Virus record (IMG/VR): IMGVR_UViG_3300011008_000022 | Length of the DNA: 64,000 nucleotides | From: a virus | Strand: one strand, 5' to 3' | Shown here: one piece after another, positions 84 through 22,604 of the stretch | Numbering within the stretch: the first letter of the stretch is position 1 | Layout: each line of letters opens with the position of its first letter | Program-made: the position numbers and the translations under genes | The notes under the pieces: model-generated | The model's database searches: none | Told to the model about the DNA's origin: nothing | What the model saw: only the letters and a program-made list of their open reading frames with translations

Positions 84-130
84 CCACCGTGCCCAGCCGT
101 TCTCGGCTGGGTCTAATAACCCAAAGTAAT

Positions 131-592
131 ATGGAAAAAGAACAAATGAATTTTGATGTTCAGGCCGCTAAGTATCTCGGCCAGATTGAGAAAAAAGAAG
201 TGTATAACCAGGGCGATATGGAAACATGTTTCGTTACTGGTTGTATGGTTGCCTCTGAACTGCAGGAGGATTGTACGGGAACCTTTGGCCAGGCTATCGG
301 CTCTTTGCGCCATGGTAAGCTCGTGGCACGTAAAGGATGGAATGGTAAGGGCATGTTCCTCTTTATGCGTCCTTTTGATAGTCTGGATGATAAGTTTGTC
401 ATCGATACGATGAAGTCGGCACCATTCAATTATAAAGAATGGCTGAAAAACCACCCCTCTGAGGATGGACGTGTCCTCTTCCGTGAATATATCTGTATGA
501 AGGCTGCTGATGGTTCTGTAGTGAATGGTTGGCTCGCCTCTCAGACGGATATGCTTTCTGATGACTGGGAAATTGTTGATCCTAATAAGTAA
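131..592 (+). CDS. DUF2829-like phage protein
   Basis: The ORF track gives 89-592, but the first 14 codons are a GTG read-through of hairpin 92-111; the first ATG is at 131. The motif GKLVARKGWNGKGMFLF resembles the DUF2829 family, recognised from memory. Confidence 0.55.
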   Translation: MEKEQMNFDVQAAKYLGQIEKKEVYNQGDMETCFVTGCMVASELQEDCTGTFGQAIGSLRHGKLVARKGWNGKGMFLFMRPFDSLDDKFVIDTMKSAPFNYKEWLKNHPSEDGRVLFREYICMKAADGSVVNGWLASQTDMLSDDWEIVDPNK

Positions 593-8531: not shown

Positions 8532-10169
8532 ATGAATGGACTACTCGAAATTCTGTCAACGAAGAAGTGGATGATCATGCCGGAGTACGTGCATGGCTCT
8601 CGCACCATGTGGGAACAGAACCTCAATGGTCATATCGCTTTGGAGTTTGACAAAAAGAAAAAGCCATACGCCATGCAGCTCACCAAGGCTTCTGAGGATG
8701 CTGCTCCCGAAATCAAGGAGTATCAGGTAACAGAGCAAGGTAAGGTGGAAAGCCGCTGGTGGATGGAAGACATGGATGCGCCTTTCGTAAACGTCATGCC
8801 GGTGGCAGGTCCTATCACCCGTGAAGGTGGTGCTTGCTCCTATGGCTCGATGGATCTCCGCGACTGGCTCATGGAGGCTGCAAATAACGAGTTCTGTAAG
8901 GCGCATGTATTCGTTATCAACTCGCCTGGTGGTTCTGCTTGGGCTATCAACGACTTCAAACAGGCTATCGACTATGCACACGAACGCGGACAGAAGGTGT
9001 ATGCTTTCGTCGATGGTCTCTGTGCCTCTGCTGCCATGTACCTGGCTTCTCAGTGTGACGAGGTTTATTACATGCACCCTAAAGACATGTTTGGCTCTAT
9101 CGGTGTCATGGCTGTGTTCTACACCGAAAAGAACGGTACGACCAACAAGTACACCAACGAGACGTTCCACGAACTCTACGACCCAGAGTCCTACGATAAG
9201 AATAAGTGGTACCGCGACCTCGCCGATGACCCGAAGAATGATAAGGTGCTCATCGACGAACTGAAAGAGGATGGTATTCAGTTCCGTGCCGACATTCAAA
9301 AGGCTTTCCCTGCTGCTAAGGAAGAGCATATCCATGGAAAGGTCTTCGAGGCTGAAAAGGTCAAGGGCATCCTTTGTGATGGTCAGATGACGCTTGGTGA
9401 GGTCATCACCCGTGCTTTCGAGGTGGCCAACGGCACCGCTACGCCGATTGAGCGCGTCGCTCCTGTCGCTCCTGAAGATGATGTACCCGAACAGGACCCT
9501 GCACCAGCAGCCGAAGCTGCCACCGCTGCCACTCCTGCCACGGATGCCACTGTGCTTGGTGGTTCTGCCACCGAGGGAGAAAAGAATAACCCTTTAAACA
9601 ACGAGAATATGAAACAGTACGAAAAGATTGCCACCGCATGTGGCGTAGATGAGCTGGTAGTGAACGCCGAGGGTGCTCACTTCGTGCCCGACATGCTCGA
9701 AGCACTTAACCAGACACTTGAGACAAATGCCAAGGAAAAGGCTGATGCTCAGACGTTGATCCAGAGCCTGAAGACACAGGTCGGCCAGGTTGAGACTACT
9801 AAGAACGATGCCGTCTCTGCTCGTGAGAAGGAATTGAACGATGCACACGAGCAAGCCATCAACACGCTCAAAGAGGAGCACACCACTGCACTCAATGCAG
9901 AGATTGCTGCTCGCGAGAAGGCTGAGAAGGAACTGAAAGAGGTGAAAGACCAACTGGCTACTGCTAACCAGACCATCACCGACCAGAAGGGACAGATTGA
10001 GCAACTGACAACGGCTGCTGCCGCTGTACCTGCCGGCTCTCCCGCTAACAATGGTCAGGGTGCTCAGGAGCAGAAGGTAGAGGGTGGTATGCCTGCATAC
10101 GACCACACCAAGTCGCCTCTGGAGAACCAGCGCATCCGTAAGGAGTACATGGCTAAGATCAGCGGCTAA
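8532..10169 (+). CDS. S49 (SppA/ClpP-fold) prohead protease fused to a coiled-coil scaffolding domain
   Basis: VFVINSPGGSAWAINDF...GLCASAAMYLASQCD...GSIGVM match S49 peptidase blocks. The C-terminal 185 aa are E/K/Q/A-rich and coiled-coil-like. The gene lies immediately upstream of the capsid candidate. Confidence 0.8.
   Translation: MNGLLEILSTKKWMIMPEYVHGSRTMWEQNLNGHIALEFDKKKKPYAMQLTKASEDAAPEIKEYQVTEQGKVESRWWMEDMDAPFVNVMPVAGPITREGGACSYGSMDLRDWLMEAANNEFCKAHVFVINSPGGSAWAINDFKQAIDYAHERGQKVYAFVDGLCASAAMYLASQCDEVYYMHPKDMFGSIGVMAVFYTEKNGTTNKYTNETFHELYDPESYDKNKWYRDLADDPKNDKVLIDELKEDGIQFRADIQKAFPAAKEEHIHGKVFEAEKVKGILCDGQMTLGEVITRAFEVANGTATPIERVAPVAPEDDVPEQDPAPAAEAATAATPATDATVLGGSATEGEKNNPLNNENMKQYEKIATACGVDELVVNAEGAHFVPDMLEALNQTLETNAKEKADAQTLIQSLKTQVGQVETTKNDAVSAREKELNDAHEQAINTLKEEHTTALNAEIAAREKAEKELKEVKDQLATANQTITDQKGQIEQLTTAAAAVPAGSPANNGQGAQEQKVEGGMPAYDHTKSPLENQRIRKEYMAKISG
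9609..10169 (+). CDS. candidate nested in-frame scaffolding protein (internal start)
   Basis: ATG 9609 is in frame with 8532. It is preceded by hairpin 9555-9575 and TAACCCTTTAAA (9587-9598), which together look like an intergenic junction. Confidence 0.35.
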   Translation: MKQYEKIATACGVDELVVNAEGAHFVPDMLEALNQTLETNAKEKADAQTLIQSLKTQVGQVETTKNDAVSAREKELNDAHEQAINTLKEEHTTALNAEIAAREKAEKELKEVKDQLATANQTITDQKGQIEQLTTAAAAVPAGSPANNGQGAQEQKVEGGMPAYDHTKSPLENQRIRKEYMAKISG

Positions 10170-17288: not shown

Positions 17289-18473
17289 ATGAAACAACTC
17301 CAAAACTCACAACCGTTTGCTGTCTCTACGACTTTCCGACCGCTAAACACGGCCATGAAAATTGTGATACTGGGGGGCATGTCGTCGCTCCAGTTCTATA
17401 GACAGACTACCCAGGAGTGGCTGCCGGACCATACTGTTGCGCCGGTCATCGATGCACATGGGCAACAGACGGATGGCACACTCCGACTGAAAGCGGAATA
17501 TACCATCTATGATGTGGATGAGAACCTGGATGTGCAGAGCATCGTGCCTCAGATATACTGGTATATCAATGATACGCAGGTAACGACAACTGACACAACG
17601 GCTGACTATTACCTGGTGGGTGATCTGCTCTATGTCCGAAAGAACTTCACACATCAGAATGGTGTCAAGGTCTATTGTGAATGCCGCTTCGTAGATACGC
17701 GTACTTCTGCGCCTCAGATCATGTCTGATACGCTTTCGCTGTCAGCAGTCTTGCAGGCTGACGAACAGTGGAGTATCAACATCCTCTGTGACCGTACCCG
17801 TAAGCACTTCCCGCTGTCTGCTGCTTCCACCATCTATACTTTCGAGGCTGAAGCACGACTGGGTGGTGTGGATAAGACGGCTCAGGTGGCATGGTTCTGG
17901 GACTACTCGCTGAATAATGGTTCTACATGGCTGACTATCGGGGATGATTGCCTCTGGTATGTCAACGGTAAGAACAGTGCAACACTGGCGGTCGATATGG
18001 ACTTCATAGAGGATCTTTTGGTCCGCTGCCGTATCGGTGTCACCAACGGCACTTCAACGGCTGCTCCTGACATCCACAACGAGGCTACGGCTTCTATCGC
18101 ATGGCGCTTTCCAAAGATACTGCCTACGGTATTCTCCTATGGTGGCAATCGTGTGTTCCCTGAGACGGCATGGATGACATTCGGCATGATGGTGCATGTG
18201 GCTAAACATAACGACATGACTCCTGAACAGAAGCGTCATTGGCTCATGCCTAACTGGGGCATACGTCAGCAAGGGTCAACAGATAATCCTGAAATGCTCG
18301 GAGAATATGGATTGGAGGTTACGGTGCCTGGTTATCGCTTGTTCAACACACTCGGCGTTAAATATCTCGTTGACCCCTATGTATCTCTACGCACGGTATA
18401 TGATGTGCTTGCTGATGAAGACGGAGAACTGATACAGCTGTCAGACGGCAATACCATCGCCATTCGTACATAA
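17289..18473 (+). CDS. hypothetical virion-module protein
   Basis: Track ORF 17241-18473. The first 16 codons read through hairpin 17253-17272; ATG 17289 follows a 16 nt spacer. Confidence 0.65.
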   Translation: MKQLQNSQPFAVSTTFRPLNTAMKIVILGGMSSLQFYRQTTQEWLPDHTVAPVIDAHGQQTDGTLRLKAEYTIYDVDENLDVQSIVPQIYWYINDTQVTTTDTTADYYLVGDLLYVRKNFTHQNGVKVYCECRFVDTRTSAPQIMSDTLSLSAVLQADEQWSINILCDRTRKHFPLSAASTIYTFEAEARLGGVDKTAQVAWFWDYSLNNGSTWLTIGDDCLWYVNGKNSATLAVDMDFIEDLLVRCRIGVTNGTSTAAPDIHNEATASIAWRFPKILPTVFSYGGNRVFPETAWMTFGMMVHVAKHNDMTPEQKRHWLMPNWGIRQQGSTDNPEMLGEYGLEVTVPGYRLFNTLGVKYLVDPYVSLRTVYDVLADEDGELIQLSDGNTIAIRT

Positions 18474-18496
18474 TAACCCTTTAAATAAAAACAACA

Positions 18497-19750
18497 ATGA
18501 AGAAAGCAAAGACATTCCTCAACCCTGGTGAAGGCATCGCTCGCGTGTTGTGTGTCACCAGTGCCAGCAACTTCTACGAGGCGCTGCCATCTGAGGTTGC
18601 AAATGCGGCCATCCCCTCTACGGTGGTCGGTGCGCTCGCTTCCAAACACACGTTGGAAGAAAACTCTAACCCTGCATTCACGGTCAATAATCGTGGTGCT
18701 GCAGAACTCTATCAGACTCAGATGGGTGGCTATATGTTCTTCCGTAAAGACGGAAAAGTGTATGCTGCCAAACTGAATGGTTCTACATGGGATAAGTTCG
18801 CAGATGCGACTCCTGTCACAGCTGCTATCGAAGCAGCCTGTGAAACGATGATCCATGTGCCTGACTGTAACTATCTCGGAGAGAACAAAACTCTGAACTT
18901 TGGCGGTCTCGTGCCTATCGATGGTGGCCATATCTTTGGCTCACCTCATTGGGTAGGTGCTTACCTGATGTCTGTCGATGGTGGCGGTGCCGGACACTCA
19001 CGCCCGAACGTGGCTCCTGGTCATTCTAAGACGATGAGTGCATTCTGGAACTGCGCACAGCAGCTCGGCACACAATGGGGATTGGCCAACTATGGTTTCT
19101 TCTGTCTCATCAATGCGCTTTTCCAGGCTCGCTATGGCTCTCTGAACTCGCAGGAGGTCATTGGTGCCGGATTCCAGACAAGTTCATGGGAGGCGGCTCG
19201 TAACGTGCCTATGGGCCTCTGTAAGTCGCTGGGTGATGGCTCTGGTAAGGTGTTCTACACCGATGCTACCATTGGCGACCAATATCCTGTAAAACTCTTC
19301 GGTTTCGAGGATCTATGGGGTAAGCTGTGGGAGTCCCGTCCTGGCATCCGCTTTGAAATGCGCGATAACGTGCGCTATGCTATCGTCTATGATGGCAACG
19401 TCGTCAGCAATACTGCTACTGGACGTGAATTTATCTGTGCTCTCTCTTCTCAGAGTGGCAGTGGTACTTATGCTAAGAGCATGGAACTGGGCGAATACTG
19501 GGATATGATATGCCAGGCTGTTGGTGCCGGTTCTAATACATACTACTGCGACGGGTATTGGTTCGCTACGGGTGGTCAGCTGCTGCTCGTCGGGGGTGTC
19601 GCGTCTTACGGTGCGCTATGCGGTCTGTCGTGTGCGAGCTCGATTTACGGTTTCTCGGTCTCGCACACGATCATCGGCGCTCGCCTGGCCTTCTACGGAG
19701 AGCCGGAAATCGTGAGCGGTGCGGAGCTGGTGGCCATGATTAACGCGTAA
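18497..19750 (+). CDS. DGR variable protein 1 (likely receptor-binding/tail protein with C-terminal C-type-lectin-like VR)
   Basis: 417 aa ORF whose C-terminal region ..QLLLVGGVASYGALCGLSCASSIYGFSVSHTIIGARLAFY.. is encoded by VR1. It is preceded by TAACCCTTTAAA. Confidence 0.85.
   Translation: MKKAKTFLNPGEGIARVLCVTSASNFYEALPSEVANAAIPSTVVGALASKHTLEENSNPAFTVNNRGAAELYQTQMGGYMFFRKDGKVYAAKLNGSTWDKFADATPVTAAIEAACETMIHVPDCNYLGENKTLNFGGLVPIDGGHIFGSPHWVGAYLMSVDGGGAGHSRPNVAPGHSKTMSAFWNCAQQLGTQWGLANYGFFCLINALFQARYGSLNSQEVIGAGFQTSSWEAARNVPMGLCKSLGDGSGKVFYTDATIGDQYPVKLFGFEDLWGKLWESRPGIRFEMRDNVRYAIVYDGNVVSNTATGREFICALSSQSGSGTYAKSMELGEYWDMICQAVGAGSNTYYCDGYWFATGGQLLLVGGVASYGALCGLSCASSIYGFSVSHTIIGARLAFYGEPEIVSGAELVAMINA
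19578..19696 (+). repeat. DGR variable region VR1
   Basis: Ungapped 119 nt alignment to TR 20052-20170. There are 17 mismatches, all at TR adenines, and all 91 non-A positions are identical. Confidence 0.92.
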
Positions 19751-20051
19751 GCGTTACATCATAGGCCAGCCGGCCTCTGGCTCGCGACCTCTTTGTAAAG
19801 TGCTCGGCGGTTCCGCCGCCGAGAATGAAATAATAAAATAGTATTAACAATAAAAAAAGTCACATCAAGAGGTGAAGTCACAAGAGCGTGACCATCCATA
19901 AAAAATTGACTTACTGAGACACTTGATGTCAGGGATTGACTTCCTGAACATACAAACTGATAGACTCCTTCCCCAAAGAGAATAGCAACATAGGTTGTTC
20001 GAGCCTTCTACAGCTCAACGGGGAAACGGAGCAAACGGCAACATATCGTGG

Positions 20052-20170
20052 AGCTGCTGCTCGTCGGGGGTGACGCGAATAACGGTGCGCAATGCGGTCT
20101 ATCGTATGCGAACTCGAATAACGGTTTCTCGAACTCGAACACGAACATCGGCGCTCGCCTGAACATCTAC
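20052..20170 (+). repeat. DGR template region (TR)
   Basis: Non-coding copy of VR1/VR2. In the VR frame it reads ELLLVGGDANNGAQCGLSYANSNNGFSNSNTNIGARLNIY, with nine AAC/AAT codons. Confidence 0.92.
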
Positions 20171-20502
20171 ATTGAACAAAAAAGAGTTATCTGATATGTT
20201 TCCACTGTTTGTCCTCACTGACTTCGCGAAAGCCAAAGAGGATGAGCACACGATTGAGCCGGTCTCGATGGAGGGTTAGCGAGTGCAAAGCGGTTTCCCC
20301 GCTTTGTCCTCTCTACCCGACAGAGCAAAGATAAAAGGCGTTGGGTATGAGCCTGACATATAGATGCACTATCACATCGTCGGGCAACAGAGTCCCCTCG
20401 CGCAAGTAAGCAAGACAGTTGTACGTCTATACCGAACACCCGTGAGCCGAGAAATGTAGAAGGCCCTCCCTGAAATATCATGTGTCACAATGAAGAGAAA
20501 CA
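20171..20502 (+). ncRNA. TR-to-RT spacer, probable 3' part of the DGR RNA
   Basis: 332 nt with no plus-strand ORF longer than 27 codons. It contains hairpin CAAAGCGG-TTTCC-CCGCTTTG near 20287-20307. The function is inferred by analogy to the Bordetella phage BPP-1 TR-Sp RNA. Confidence 0.3.
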
Positions 20503-21849
20503 ATGGCAGAATTAGCTTATCAGCGAAAGAAACGCCTGCGCGGAAAGAACCGCAAACTACGCATCAGCATGGTCTATGACCCGCTGAACCTACGTCAAGC
20601 CGACATCGAGGCACGACGTGGTAAGGATGCTCATAAAGGGGTACGTCTCTTCGACAAAGACCCGCAAGGCAATCTCTCTTTACTGCATGATTGGCTGAAG
20701 ACTGAGACCTATCATACTTCTCCTGGGCATGAGTGTGTCAGACACTGCCCATGCGGAAAGGATCGAGTGCTTCACAAGCTGCCATACTTTCCTGACCACA
20801 TCGAGAACCATGCACTGATGCAGGTCATCATGCCTACCATGATGCGGGCGTATTACTACGACTCCTCGGCATCTATCAAAGGTAAGGGTATGCACTTTGC
20901 GGAACGACGTACCAAACGATACATCGATATCCACCGCAAGCATAATGACCGCATCTATTTCGTCAAACTGGATTTCGTGAAGTTCTACCATAACATCGAC
21001 CAGGAAAAGATTTACAAGCACCTGGCAAAGAAGTTTGGCGATCGGGGTGTACGCTATCTCATCCGTGAGATAGTAACGGCATGTGAAAAGGGACTGGGCA
21101 TCGGATTGTTCCCAATACAGCCTATCGCCAACTACTACACATGTCCGCTATGCCGACTGGTGATGATGCTCTTTGACGTGTGGATGGAGATATACTGCGA
21201 TGATATGGTCATCATTGGTACCGATAAGAAAGAGGTATGGAAAGCGGTAAATTTCATCCAGCAGTATGCGGAGGATGTTATGGAACAGCCACTGCATGAG
21301 AATATCGGAATGCAGATCATCGACGAACGCCACCGCCTCGATTTCGTGGGTTACATGTTTTTCTTCAAACACACGCTGCTGCGCAAGCGGATGAAAAAGA
21401 AGTTTAAGCGGAAGATGCACCGCATCAAAGACCCGCTGAAACGCTATCGCGCCGCTGCAAGTTACAAAGGATGGCTCATGCACTGCAATGGTTTTAGTCT
21501 CTGGTGTGCTGTAATGAATATGAAATCTTACAAGGAACTAAATGTACCTACATTCGAGAAAAAGAACGCAGAGGGCAAACGCATACTCGAAGGAACAAAG
21601 GTATCGGCATCGATGCTTTGTGGACGCGAGTTGGTGTTTACTGACGTGGAGTTTGACGTGAAATCGAAGTACAACAAGCCGGCAACAGTGATTCAGGTGG
21701 AGGAGAACGGACAAAAATATAAGTTCTTCACCAACAACCAGAAACTCACACAGGCGCTGTCCTACATCAATGCTCACGATGGCTTCCCGTTCAAGGGCAC
21801 AATCGTTCGCACAAACTCCTCTGGCCTACCCGACTACGCCATACAGTAG
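20503..21849 (+). CDS. DGR reverse transcriptase with about 108 aa C-terminal extension
   Basis: IGLFPIQ resembles the DGR-type [I/L]GxxxSQ motif. The catalytic YCDD is at 21193-21204. SYKGWLMHCNGFSLW resembles the usual DGR RT C-terminus at aa 320-335, but the ORF continues to aa 448. Confidence 0.88.
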   Translation: MAELAYQRKKRLRGKNRKLRISMVYDPLNLRQADIEARRGKDAHKGVRLFDKDPQGNLSLLHDWLKTETYHTSPGHECVRHCPCGKDRVLHKLPYFPDHIENHALMQVIMPTMMRAYYYDSSASIKGKGMHFAERRTKRYIDIHRKHNDRIYFVKLDFVKFYHNIDQEKIYKHLAKKFGDRGVRYLIREIVTACEKGLGIGLFPIQPIANYYTCPLCRLVMMLFDVWMEIYCDDMVIIGTDKKEVWKAVNFIQQYAEDVMEQPLHENIGMQIIDERHRLDFVGYMFFFKHTLLRKRMKKKFKRKMHRIKDPLKRYRAAASYKGWLMHCNGFSLWCAVMNMKSYKELNVPTFEKKNAEGKRILEGTKVSASMLCGRELVFTDVEFDVKSKYNKPATVIQVEENGQKYKFFTNNQKLTQALSYINAHDGFPFKGTIVRTNSSGLPDYAIQ

Positions 21850-21914
21850 TTCTCAGCCGTTTTCGGCTGGCTCATCGAAATAAAGAAATAATAACCCTTT
21901 AAAAATTGAGAATT

Positions 21915-22604
21915 ATGAAAAAGTCAGAATTTTTTGAGCGTCCCGACCTCGCCACCATCGAAGGCGATGTCCTGCGTATCTCTTTCGGCGTGACTGAGGA
22001 ACAGGTGCCTGTCAATCCACAAGAGGAAACCCCTGCTGGTCAGGAGCCGGAAACTCGTACTCTCTACCGTGCTTATGTGGTACGTCTGAAGAACCCGTTT
22101 ACCATTGAGCGTATCAAAGCTGCATTGCTCACACATGAGTATGACGGCGAAGTGCTGCCTGACACGGTGGCTGAAGCCATTGCTGCAGAGGCATTGCTGA
22201 TGCTCGTGGATGCAGGCATCCTCACAGGCGACCGCCTCGCTATCGCTAAGACGATGAAACTGGCACAGCTGGCAACCTACGACAACTCGGATGCGGTCAA
22301 CCTCTTCACCTACAAGGGTGTCAATATGTGGCTCGACAAAGACACGCGCAATGGTCTCATCGCACGTCTCAATGCTGAGAAGGCCATGGGTAAGACCACT
22401 TCGACGCTTTGGTACGAAAACCAGTCTTTCACGCTCGACATCGACGATGGTCTGCAGATGCTCGCTGCCCTCGAAGTGTATGCTTCTGAGTGCTACGACT
22501 GCACAGCGTCTCACCATGCTTCCATCATTGCTATGGAGGTGTCTGATGCGGTCATTGCCTACGACTTCACCGTTGGCTATCCTTCCAAGTTGGTCTTTAA
22601 CTAA
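21915..22604 (+). CDS. hypothetical protein
   Basis: The track starts at TTG 21906; the first ATG is at 21915. It is preceded by TAACCCTTTAAA at 21892-21903. Confidence 0.65.
   Translation: MKKSEFFERPDLATIEGDVLRISFGVTEEQVPVNPQEETPAGQEPETRTLYRAYVVRLKNPFTIERIKAALLTHEYDGEVLPDTVAEAIAAEALLMLVDAGILTGDRLAIAKTMKLAQLATYDNSDAVNLFTYKGVNMWLDKDTRNGLIARLNAEKAMGKTTSTLWYENQSFTLDIDDGLQMLAALEVYASECYDCTASHHASIIAMEVSDAVIAYDFTVGYPSKLVFN

Follow-up and report, generated by a model that had tools for sequence, protein, structure and literature searches.

A diversity-generating retroelement without a detectable Avd gene in a probable Prevotella phage: a structured RNA, a reverse transcriptase C-terminal domain, and an acidic neighbor protein

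Introduction

How does a diversity-generating retroelement (DGR) work when the accessory protein Avd is missing? Avd (Pfam PF05635) is a basic, RNA-binding four-helix bundle of about 110-130 aa, and its pentamer has a scaffold role in the Bordetella element BPP-1. To our knowledge, Avd is essential in the sole DGR that has been studied biochemically, about a quarter of DGRs, including abundant ones of gut phages, are without it, and how an Avd-less DGR makes its cDNA has been shown by nobody. The question is raised afresh by IMG/VR record IMGVR_UViG_3300011008_000022, a 64,000-nt stretch of phage DNA (termed the window; coordinates count from its first letter, and all features described are on its plus strand). 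The window holds a DGR in which a tail protein gene with a variable repeat (VR), a template repeat (TR), and the gene of a reverse transcriptase (RT) follow one another. In a reading made from the sequence alone, either a C-terminal extension of the RT or the RNA itself had been proposed to substitute for Avd.

The analysis establishes the identity of the DGR, the lack of any detectable Avd, the conservation and pairing of the RNA, the conservation and split forms of a C-terminal domain of the RT, and the synteny of an acidic gene after it; that any of these components does the job of Avd is what we infer. On balance we favor the view that this is an Avd-less DGR of a Bacteroidota phage in which a larger RNA and the C-terminal domain, perhaps together with the acidic protein, share the scaffold role of Avd.

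A complete and recently active DGR

The region holds an entire DGR that has been active recently. Its target gene (18497-19750) encodes a tail or receptor-binding protein of 417 aa, residues 170-399 of which match the phrog_5302 family "tail protein" (E = 1e-36), with the VR (119 nt, 19578-19696) at the C-terminus, inside the last 60 codons and ending 54 nt before the stop of the gene. The TR, also of 119 nt (20052-20170), is offset from the VR by 474 nt. Between 19599 and 19691 the two repeats differ at 17 positions, every one of them an adenine in the TR that has become any base in the VR, and in 11 related loci the repeats differ at 15-21 positions, of which at most one is not an A. At the 3' ends, both repeats carry ATCGGCGCTCGCCTG (19673-19687 in the VR), followed by GCCTTCTAC in the VR (19688-19696) and by AACATCTAC in the TR, an arrangement like that of the initiation of mutagenic homing (IMH) block and its TR counterpart, IMH*. 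These last 9 nt of the VR differ from the TR in one fixed pattern across all lineages, and the likeness suggests an IMH function for the block. The VRs of the window and of two IMG/VR relatives, which are about 1% divergent over 9.3 kb, differ densely at positions of TR adenines, and the element has therefore been working recently.

The TR itself also varies among close relatives. In its 5' part (20060-20106), four positions distinguish the window (CT, G, and A) from the two relatives L001 and L010, which are about 1% divergent (AA, A, and T), and at three of the four (CT and G) the window TR has the letters of the window VR, which may reflect occasional VR-to-TR conversion or template mutation.

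The RT gene (20503-21849) encodes 448 aa, made up of a basic tail (aa 1-16), a core like that of the Bordetella RT (bRT; aa 17-340), and a C-terminal domain. It matches Pfam RVT_1 and, over aa 21-436, phrog_1423, and the YCDD motif at aa 231-234 is invariant in the clade. The best PDB match was the bRT structure 8ub7 (328 aa) by sequence (E = 7e-19, RT aa 17-340 only) as well as by fold (E = 1e-17, target-normalized TM-score of 0.88 over 335 columns), the latter using an AlphaFold2 model with a predicted local distance difference test (pLDDT) score of 86. The motif-4 region reads IGLFPIQ, versus IGSLTSQ in bRT. More than 120 protein clusters of 440-465 aa, at 53% identity or above, cover the full-length RT. 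Matches among GenBank phage RTs came from crAss-like phages and Hankyphage, the best at less than 60% identity.

Two further features set the RT apart from bRT. The N-terminal tail ELAYKRKARLRGKNRK (20503-20550) is conserved and highly basic (pI 11 for aa 1-30), and bRT has no such tail. Four residues that are invariant in the clade, C82, C84, H99, and H103 (CPCGK...PDHIxxHA), may form a putative metal site, as judged from the sequence; bRT has no cysteines there.

No Avd gene in the cassette or in the scanned sequence

The target stop and the TR are separated by 301 nt (19751-20051) and the TR and RT by 332 nt (20171-20502), in agreement with the 300 and 332 nt first reported. Neither spacer holds an open reading frame (ORF) of Avd size. 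The upper limit of 27 codons originally set for plus-strand ORFs was too low, as the longest one starting with ATG has 31 codons (20364-20459), and with GTG and TTG starts allowed the longest reaches 55 codons (19995-20162) by overlapping the TR; still, neither is Avd-sized. All of the 11 related loci with complete cassettes share one order, namely target with VR, 240-342 nt, TR, 154-373 nt, and RT, and no Avd-sized ORF was present between target and RT in these loci or in Hankyphage.

The comparison with Pfam and NCBIfam covered the window ORFs of 70-200 aa (84 on the plus strand and 83 on the minus strand) and 23 ORFs from the flanks of close relatives (10 kb on the upstream side and 7.9 kb on the downstream side, about 18 kb in all). 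No Avd or other four-helix-bundle family was among the 25 families listed per scan for either strand of the window or for the relatives' flanks, and no HRDC or MutS-like family was among those listed for the small ORFs. For three more distant loci with a domain-carrying RT, no Avd family was recorded on neighboring genes. The only conserved small ORF beside the RT encodes an acidic protein (pI 4.6) rather than a basic, Avd-like one. Avd is thus missing from the cassette, as the sequence-only reading had it, and from all sequence scanned.

A conserved, structured RNA surrounds the template repeat

Folding and covariation analysis of the spacers revealed a conserved, structured RNA with covarying helices, the core of which occupies 20246-20464 (150-219 nt in relatives). 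A 22-nt motif of this core, AAGTAAGNNNNNCAGTTGTACG, matched 83 IMG/VR stretches on contigs of 4-107 kb, from which 43 unique core sequences of 150-219 nt were aligned and evaluated with RNAalifold and by pair counting. Across these, 97.7% of the cells were paired, compared with 26-46% in slid controls in which the partners were shifted by 1-3 columns. Compensatory changes were found in 43 cells versus 17.6 in shuffled alignments, and none of the 500 shuffles reached the observed number. The best-supported helices were a long stem, CUGUCUCGAUGGAGGG...CCCGACAGAGC, with an apex insert of variable length, and a hairpin at 20413-20428, in which A-U and G-C replace each other at three of the four pairs. 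Loci whose RTs are just 53% identical still have an almost unchanged core, and the core is more conserved than the proteins. For 13 genome contigs and 3 loci with a split RT, an nhmmer profile of the core gave a match just upstream of the RT, and in Hankyphage and more distant loci it gave none. An Rfam scan of the spacers assigned no family, the sole match being FsrA at E = 0.97.

The sequence-only reading had singled out two structural elements. Its hairpin CAAAGCGG-TTTCC-CCGCTTTG does exist, one base from where it had been placed (20286-20306), but lies in a variable-length insert (20274-20318; a second insert hairpin is at 20351-20385) and is absent in many relatives. The proposed long-range pairing of ACATCAAG (19862-19869) with CTTGATGT (19922-19929), again displaced by one base, did not hold up. 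It falls outside the minimum-energy fold, is unconserved beyond near-identical relatives, and is at chance level, with two such 8-nt inverted repeats against 0.57 expected and as many in 15% of shuffles. Most relatives have another small hairpin, with CGNGA as its loop, in the stretch from the TR to the core (20219-20235, about 50 nt after the TR); it is missing in L009, L013, L014, L019, and L033, and elsewhere its stem changes with pairing kept, as seen by inspection.

The 3' end of the core is a short box, TGTAGAAGGC (20455-20464), with three complementary segments. The first is a 5' box about 40 nt upstream of the TR, GCCTTCTACA (20003-20012, 10 bp), a near-copy of the VR end that forms the upstream strand of a helix enclosing the TR and the core. 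Of 11 positions, 7-10 are paired between the two boxes across the 43 unique loci; one position is C-G in 15 loci and U-A in 26, and rarer double changes also occur. The same helix closes the minimum-energy fold of 19998-20470 (z = -3.05). The second complementary segment is the TR end with the next three bases (20162-20173; TCTACATT, 8 bp), and the third is the VR end in the target gene (its last 9-10 nt; GCCTTCTAC). As a separate observation, 19 of 19 lineages showed agreement between the RNA box and the C or T found at the third position of a VR alanine codon, which shared ancestry could explain.

By this anatomy, the TR and what had been taken for two spacers would belong to one DGR RNA consisting of the 5' box, the TR, a short linker, and a folded core of 150-220 nt, the 3' end of which would pair back to the 5' box. 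In the Bordetella element, bRT is wrapped by the Sp RNA, which also pairs with a segment upstream of the TR, the "cPRT Stop" (bioRxiv 10.1101/2023.10.23.563531). The logic may be the same here, and the helix between the 5' and 3' boxes appears to mirror the upstream/downstream duplex of BPP-1. The spacer is 332 nt in the window as opposed to 140 nt in BPP-1, however, and the core has no evident sequence relation to Sp. BPP-1 further has an Avd-binding stem-loop directly 3' of the TR, whereas conservation is poor at this position here, the CGNGA hairpin about 50 nt after the TR being present in most but not all relatives.

Relation to described DGRs

The architecture, which the sequence-only reading had considered undescribed, has been catalogued, and Hankyphage has the same layout. 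Wu et al. 2018 (PMC5758913), the only paper returned by a full-text search on Avd-independent DGRs, recorded avd in 74% of 372 DGRs and placed 29% in Architecture A, a TR-RT arrangement with no accessory gene, for which a count of 75 out of 372 is also cited. Among the avd-less elements is Lineage 3, with a branch, 3A, restricted to Bacteroides and relatives, and a profile search in that work detected no avd elsewhere in genomes carrying avd-less DGRs. About 20% of DGR RTs were noted to have a C-terminal extension, at most ~150 aa long and without recognizable motifs. CH1, an acidic, RT-flanking protein of 160-169 aa (pI ~4.7, no motifs), was put forward as an accessory candidate of avd-less DGRs only. 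The window element resembles Architectures A1/E1 and Lineage 3/3A in its TR-RT core without avd, HRDC, or MSL, in its Bacteroides-relative hosts, in the C-terminal extension of the RT, and in the acidic ORF without known motifs after the RT, which at 229 aa differs in length from CH1. The window RT may belong to Lineage 3, for which the hosts, Prevotella and relatives, and relatedness to the Hankyphage RT give indirect support.

With BPP-1 (mtd-avd-TR-brt; PDB 8ub7), the window shares the adenine-specific flow from TR to VR into the 3' end of a tail fiber gene, the fold of the RT core (TM-score of 0.88), and the GC-rich IMH-like block at the repeat ends. BPP-1 carries avd, and the window has 301 nt of noncoding DNA in its place. 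The window RT also has the basic N-terminal tail and the C-terminal domain of ~100 aa, whereas bRT has been described without such a subdomain.

In Hankyphage (Bacteroides phage p00), target with VR, short spacer, TR, spacer, RT, and small acidic ORF follow one another as they do in the window, and its DGR has been shown to be active in culture (PMC12135933). Its RT aligns with that of the window through the C-terminal domain (30% identity, ending ...KFFTN...DGFPF). Hankyphage differs in being a 43-kb Mu-like temperate phage, as against a window phage of about 100 kb, and in having shorter spacers (190 and 196 nt). The ORF after the Hankyphage RT bears the label "Avd" in one record (L018:5086-5571 in Bacteroides phage jmh72_hp, PV107408; BK010646). 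We rejected the label as a sign of homology, as the ORF product is acidic (pI 4.69) and its match is to DUF4376 (E = 1e-5) rather than to the Avd family. The original Hankyphage paper described just a small ORF near the RT with a pI and size similar to Avd, and the label appears to rest on position only.

Most DGRs that zeta crAss-like phages carry are without AVD genes (PMC12386605). Two crAss-like relatives, Suoliviridae cr50_1 and cr55_1, have RTs 32-34% identical to the window RT over the core, no annotated avd, and an acidic ORF after the RT that is homologous to that of the window. Neither the cr50_1 RT (346 aa) nor the cr55_1 RT matched the profile of the C-terminal domain, and cr50_1 departs from the window in how the genes are ordered with respect to the tail protein. 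The architecture class and an active relative, Hankyphage, were hence already known. What is new is modest and concerns anatomy, namely an RNA family with a closing helix, a separable domain, and an acidic partner.

An acidic protein encoded directly after the RT

In all related loci examined, an acidic ORF (pI 4.5-5.5) was present directly 3' of the RT. It falls outside the coordinates given in the sequence-only reading, which did not take it into account. The window copy (21915-22604) encodes 229 aa from its ATG, with a pI of 4.6 and an N-terminal module of ~100 residues, assigned to the phrog_11557 family, that is conserved across the clade. Profile comparison with hhalign showed it to be homologous to the post-RT ORFs of cr50_1 and cr55_1 (probability of 97%, E = 1e-10), which overlap the RT stop by 17-26 nt. 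A match to DUF4376 was weak (E = 1e-4), and beyond this weak match in both, profile comparison with the post-RT ORFs of the Hankyphage type detected no homology. A sequence search of the PDB with the acidic protein profile returned no homologue. Of the features of CH1, the window ORF has the acidity (pI 4.62) and the position but is 229 aa long; the Hankyphage ORF fits (161 aa, pI 4.69). The RTs of cr50_1 and cr55_1 are without a domain match and have the acidic partner, and the acidic protein is therefore tied to Avd-less RTs more widely than the C-terminal domain is. We consider it a candidate for a non-Avd accessory factor or a tail fiber helper.

Two short sequence elements accompany this gene. 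A hairpin, CAGCCGTTTTCGGCTG (21854-21869), a variant copy of a repeat found throughout the genome, comes directly after the RT stop. A box, ATAATAACCCTTTAAA, precedes both the target gene (18471-18486) and the acidic ORF (21889-21904) and, with a further copy at 9585, occurs three times in 64 kb, which suggests shared regulation of the target gene and the acidic ORF.

The acidic protein (phrog_11557 family, CH1-like) could be the true accessory factor, with the C-terminal domain doing another job, such as handling of cDNA or target DNA during integration. The constancy of its place after the RT favors this explanation, as do the reach of the family into crAss-like phages, where the gene overlaps the RT stop, and the proposal by Wu et al. 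of an acidic CH1 as accessory gene of avd-less DGRs only. Yet Avd is basic and RNA-binding, whereas this protein is acidic (pI 4.5-5.5), the protein has no homology to solved proteins and none that we could detect to the CH1-like protein of Hankyphage, and in the window its ORF stands behind a hairpin and an upstream box of its own. We regard this explanation as possible but rather unlikely.

A C-terminal domain that is fused to the RT or encoded separately

The extension of ~108 aa past SYKGWLMHCNGFSLW reported for the RT proved real, as bRT ends near residue 340 by sequence and by fold, and so did its beta-rich character. In the AlphaFold2 model, the domain (aa ~350-448, 21550-21846, pI 9.2) has five strands and one main helix in the order beta1-beta2-beta3-helix-beta4-beta5, with a pLDDT of 91 when modeled alone (aa 340-448) and of ~90 within the full RT. 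The fold is not all-helical and thus not an Avd-like bundle. The order of the elements, with the helix between strands 3 and 4, fits an oligonucleotide/oligosaccharide-binding (OB) fold, and similarity to known OB folds is weak. Foldseek detected no significant structure in the PDB (best E = 0.19, TM ≤ 0.42), and matches in BFVD were viral RTs with the same domain followed by weak matches to phage single-stranded DNA (ssDNA)-binding proteins (E = 4e-3 to 5e-2, TM ~0.5). The domain may bind nucleic acid, as these weak matches suggest.

The domain is conserved throughout the RT clade and is covered both by the PHROG family of the RT and by phrog_19665 (105 residues, unknown function). An exhaustive HMMER search with the domain yielded 36 representatives, of which about nine were RTs (430-550 aa) that end in the domain and most others were proteins of 70-284 aa; an earlier word-indexed protein search with the domain alone had returned only two fragments. 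Seven apparent stand-alone proteins (P0131, P0155, P0138, P0146, L198, L192, and L203) were discarded as contig-end fragments or frameshifted RTs, leaving clean splits of RT and domain in L193, L194, and L197 only, which represent two diverged lineages. L193 (518-2244) and L194 encode an RT of 337 aa, a gap of 1 nt, and a domain ORF of 114 aa, and the L193 junction lies within an A-rich run. In L197 (332-1973), an RT of 333 aa and a domain ORF of 117 aa overlap in ATGA. A small acidic gene follows the domain ORF in both split lineages. These natural splits, by a 1-nt gap and by an ATGA overlap, indicate that the domain can be detached from the RT as a module of its own and is under selection.

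A domain homologue of 102 aa was also found with no RT nearby, in L201 (1238-2107) and L202, where it adjoins an HNH gene, an acidic ORF of 105 aa similar to the post-RT proteins, and a holin. This locus may be a DGR remnant or represent an independent use of the domain.

In favor of replacement of Avd by the C-terminal domain alone, as in the simple form of the sequence-only reading, are its presence in every RT of the clade and in RTs of the Hankyphage type and the lack of Avd in all domain-carrying loci that we examined. That the domain can be a small separate protein after the RT, in the manner of an accessory gene, that it is basic in the window, and that it is OB-like with weak similarity to phage ssDNA-binding proteins likewise fit such a role. 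A beta-rich domain is nonetheless unlike the helical barrel of Avd, the stand-alone versions vary in charge, and cr50_1 combines an Avd-less RT of 346 aa that has no such domain with an acidic partner. Substitution of Avd by the extension or the RNA, in its simple form, is weakened, and that the domain suffices by itself appears unlikely.

How the scaffold role of Avd may be met

Slightly less likely again is that the RT and the enlarged RNA are sufficient, with the acidic ORF being a gene for tail fiber assembly or a chaperone-type function and the C-terminal domain a dispensable decoration. Weak DUF4376 matches of the window ORF, the Hankyphage ORF, and L219 point this way, as do the three copies of the ATAATAACCCTTTAAA box, one of them ahead of the target gene and another ahead of the acidic ORF, and the conservation of the RNA core in excess of that of the proteins. 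In cr55_1, however, the acidic ORF adjoins the RT, whose end it overlaps, and not the target, and the domain is kept down to ~30% RT identity and survives as a split gene, which argues for selection. We give very little credence to an Avd homologue acting in trans from elsewhere in the phage or host genome, for although about a third of the ~100-kb genome is outside the window and Avd is poorly conserved, no match was found in the window (both strands) or in the relatives' flanks of 10 kb and 7.9 kb, the profile search of Wu et al. detected no avd in genomes of avd-less DGRs, and the whole lineage has no avd beside the cassette.

We therefore return to the reading favored at the outset, that of an Avd-less Bacteroidota-phage DGR in which the scaffold role is divided. 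Under it, the DGR would diversify the C-terminal, receptor-binding end of the tail protein by means of the single folded RNA outlined above. The RT would combine a bRT-like catalytic body with a lineage-specific OB-like domain, mostly fused and, in one sub-clade, supplied as a translationally coupled ORF, and the acidic protein encoded right after the RT would be a third recurrent component. Avd would have no single substitute; its scaffold role would fall jointly to the larger RNA and the C-terminal domain, with a possible part for the acidic protein.

Several observations count against this reading. The RT of cr50_1 is Avd-less and has no C-terminal domain, and the domain is therefore no general substitute for Avd. 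The domain has no confident structural homologue, and its stand-alone versions are not consistently basic (pI 5.3 and 8.5). The acidic ORF has a weak match to DUF4376 and is preceded by the same box as the target gene, and in the window a hairpin lies between it and the RT; it may instead serve the tail fiber. Finally, the Avd scan spans 64 kb of a genome of ~100 kb plus ~18 kb of relatives' flanks, and Avd sequences are poorly conserved, so that profile searches can miss one (PMC5758913).

A bolder version of the divided role is offered only tentatively, and we think it more doubtful than probable. In this version, Bacteroidota-phage DGRs would run on a ribonucleoprotein unlike that of Bordetella, built, in place of the Avd pentamer, with the OB-like domain (fused or split), the acidic protein, and the larger RNA, and the 3' box would act as a switch. 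Pairing of the 3' box with the 5' box would be the closed state, pairing with the TR end the priming state, and the IMH at the VR end would be the target. The same RNA segment could in this way help to choose the target site.

The phage and other features of the window

Every long ORF of the window is a plus-strand one, and the genes, which include those for tail proteins, a holin, Dam, and a Tad2-like protein, are typical of a tailed phage. The closest genome matches were contigs of 93-108 kb binned with rumen and gut Prevotella/Prevotellaceae, together with the isolate Prevotella sp. tc2-28. The host is probably Prevotella, and the phage genome would be about 100 kb, of which the window represents about two thirds. 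Using the RT as query, we retrieved 16 IMG/VR loci at 53-100% identity. The closest public contig, IMGVR_UViG_3300026549_000055 (L001, L186), is not identical to the window, having 121 mismatches in 9.3 kb around the DGR (1.3%) and further indels, one of ~1.1 kb towards the window end. Other genes of the window are closest to differing contigs, which suggests a mosaic phage population. A megablast search of the DGR cassette against GenBank phages gave no match, and PADLOC reported generic RT models only.

An ORF at the start of the window (89-592) has a strong match to the Tad2-like (Thoeris anti-defense 2) domain (E = 3e-22), and homologues of it occur on several hundred IMG/VR contigs. A 20-nt, near-identical, perfect hairpin, CCCAGCCG-YTCT-CGGCTGGG, is present in at least 14 plus-strand copies, mostly at gene boundaries (positions 92, 16314, 17253, 21854, 22618, 23155, 29531, 33461, 34284, 38154, 41785, 43110, 43165, 43884, and 59057). 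The phage may use it throughout its genome as a terminator, an attenuator, or a signal for RNA processing.

Three more hairpins are located around and after the end of the target gene. One, TAACGC-GTAA-GCGTTA (19741-19756), spans the stop codon, and its stem is kept despite changed sequences in relatives, as judged by inspection of the alignment. It lies 3' of the IMH and in this is reminiscent of a GC-rich inverted repeat in the target site of BPP-1 (PMC5758913); by this analogy it may have a comparable function. Downstream of the gene are two GC-rich hairpins, GGCCAGCCGGCC and CTCGGCGG-TTC-CGCCGCCGAG (19764-19823), both present in the minimum-energy fold of 19751-20000 (z = -3.1) and possibly serving as terminators, although no terminator of the T-run type was predicted. 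Scans for sigma-70 promoters and T-run terminators gave nothing useful, and Bacteroidota signals are outside what those scans cover.

Implications

The locus and its relatives provide a test set for DGRs that do without Avd, since they combine a compact covarying RNA, a domain that nature presents both fused and split, and one conserved neighbor gene. With it, Avd-independent mutagenic retrohoming becomes directly testable, and such work could lead to tools for targeted mutagenesis that are smaller or can be programmed in another way.

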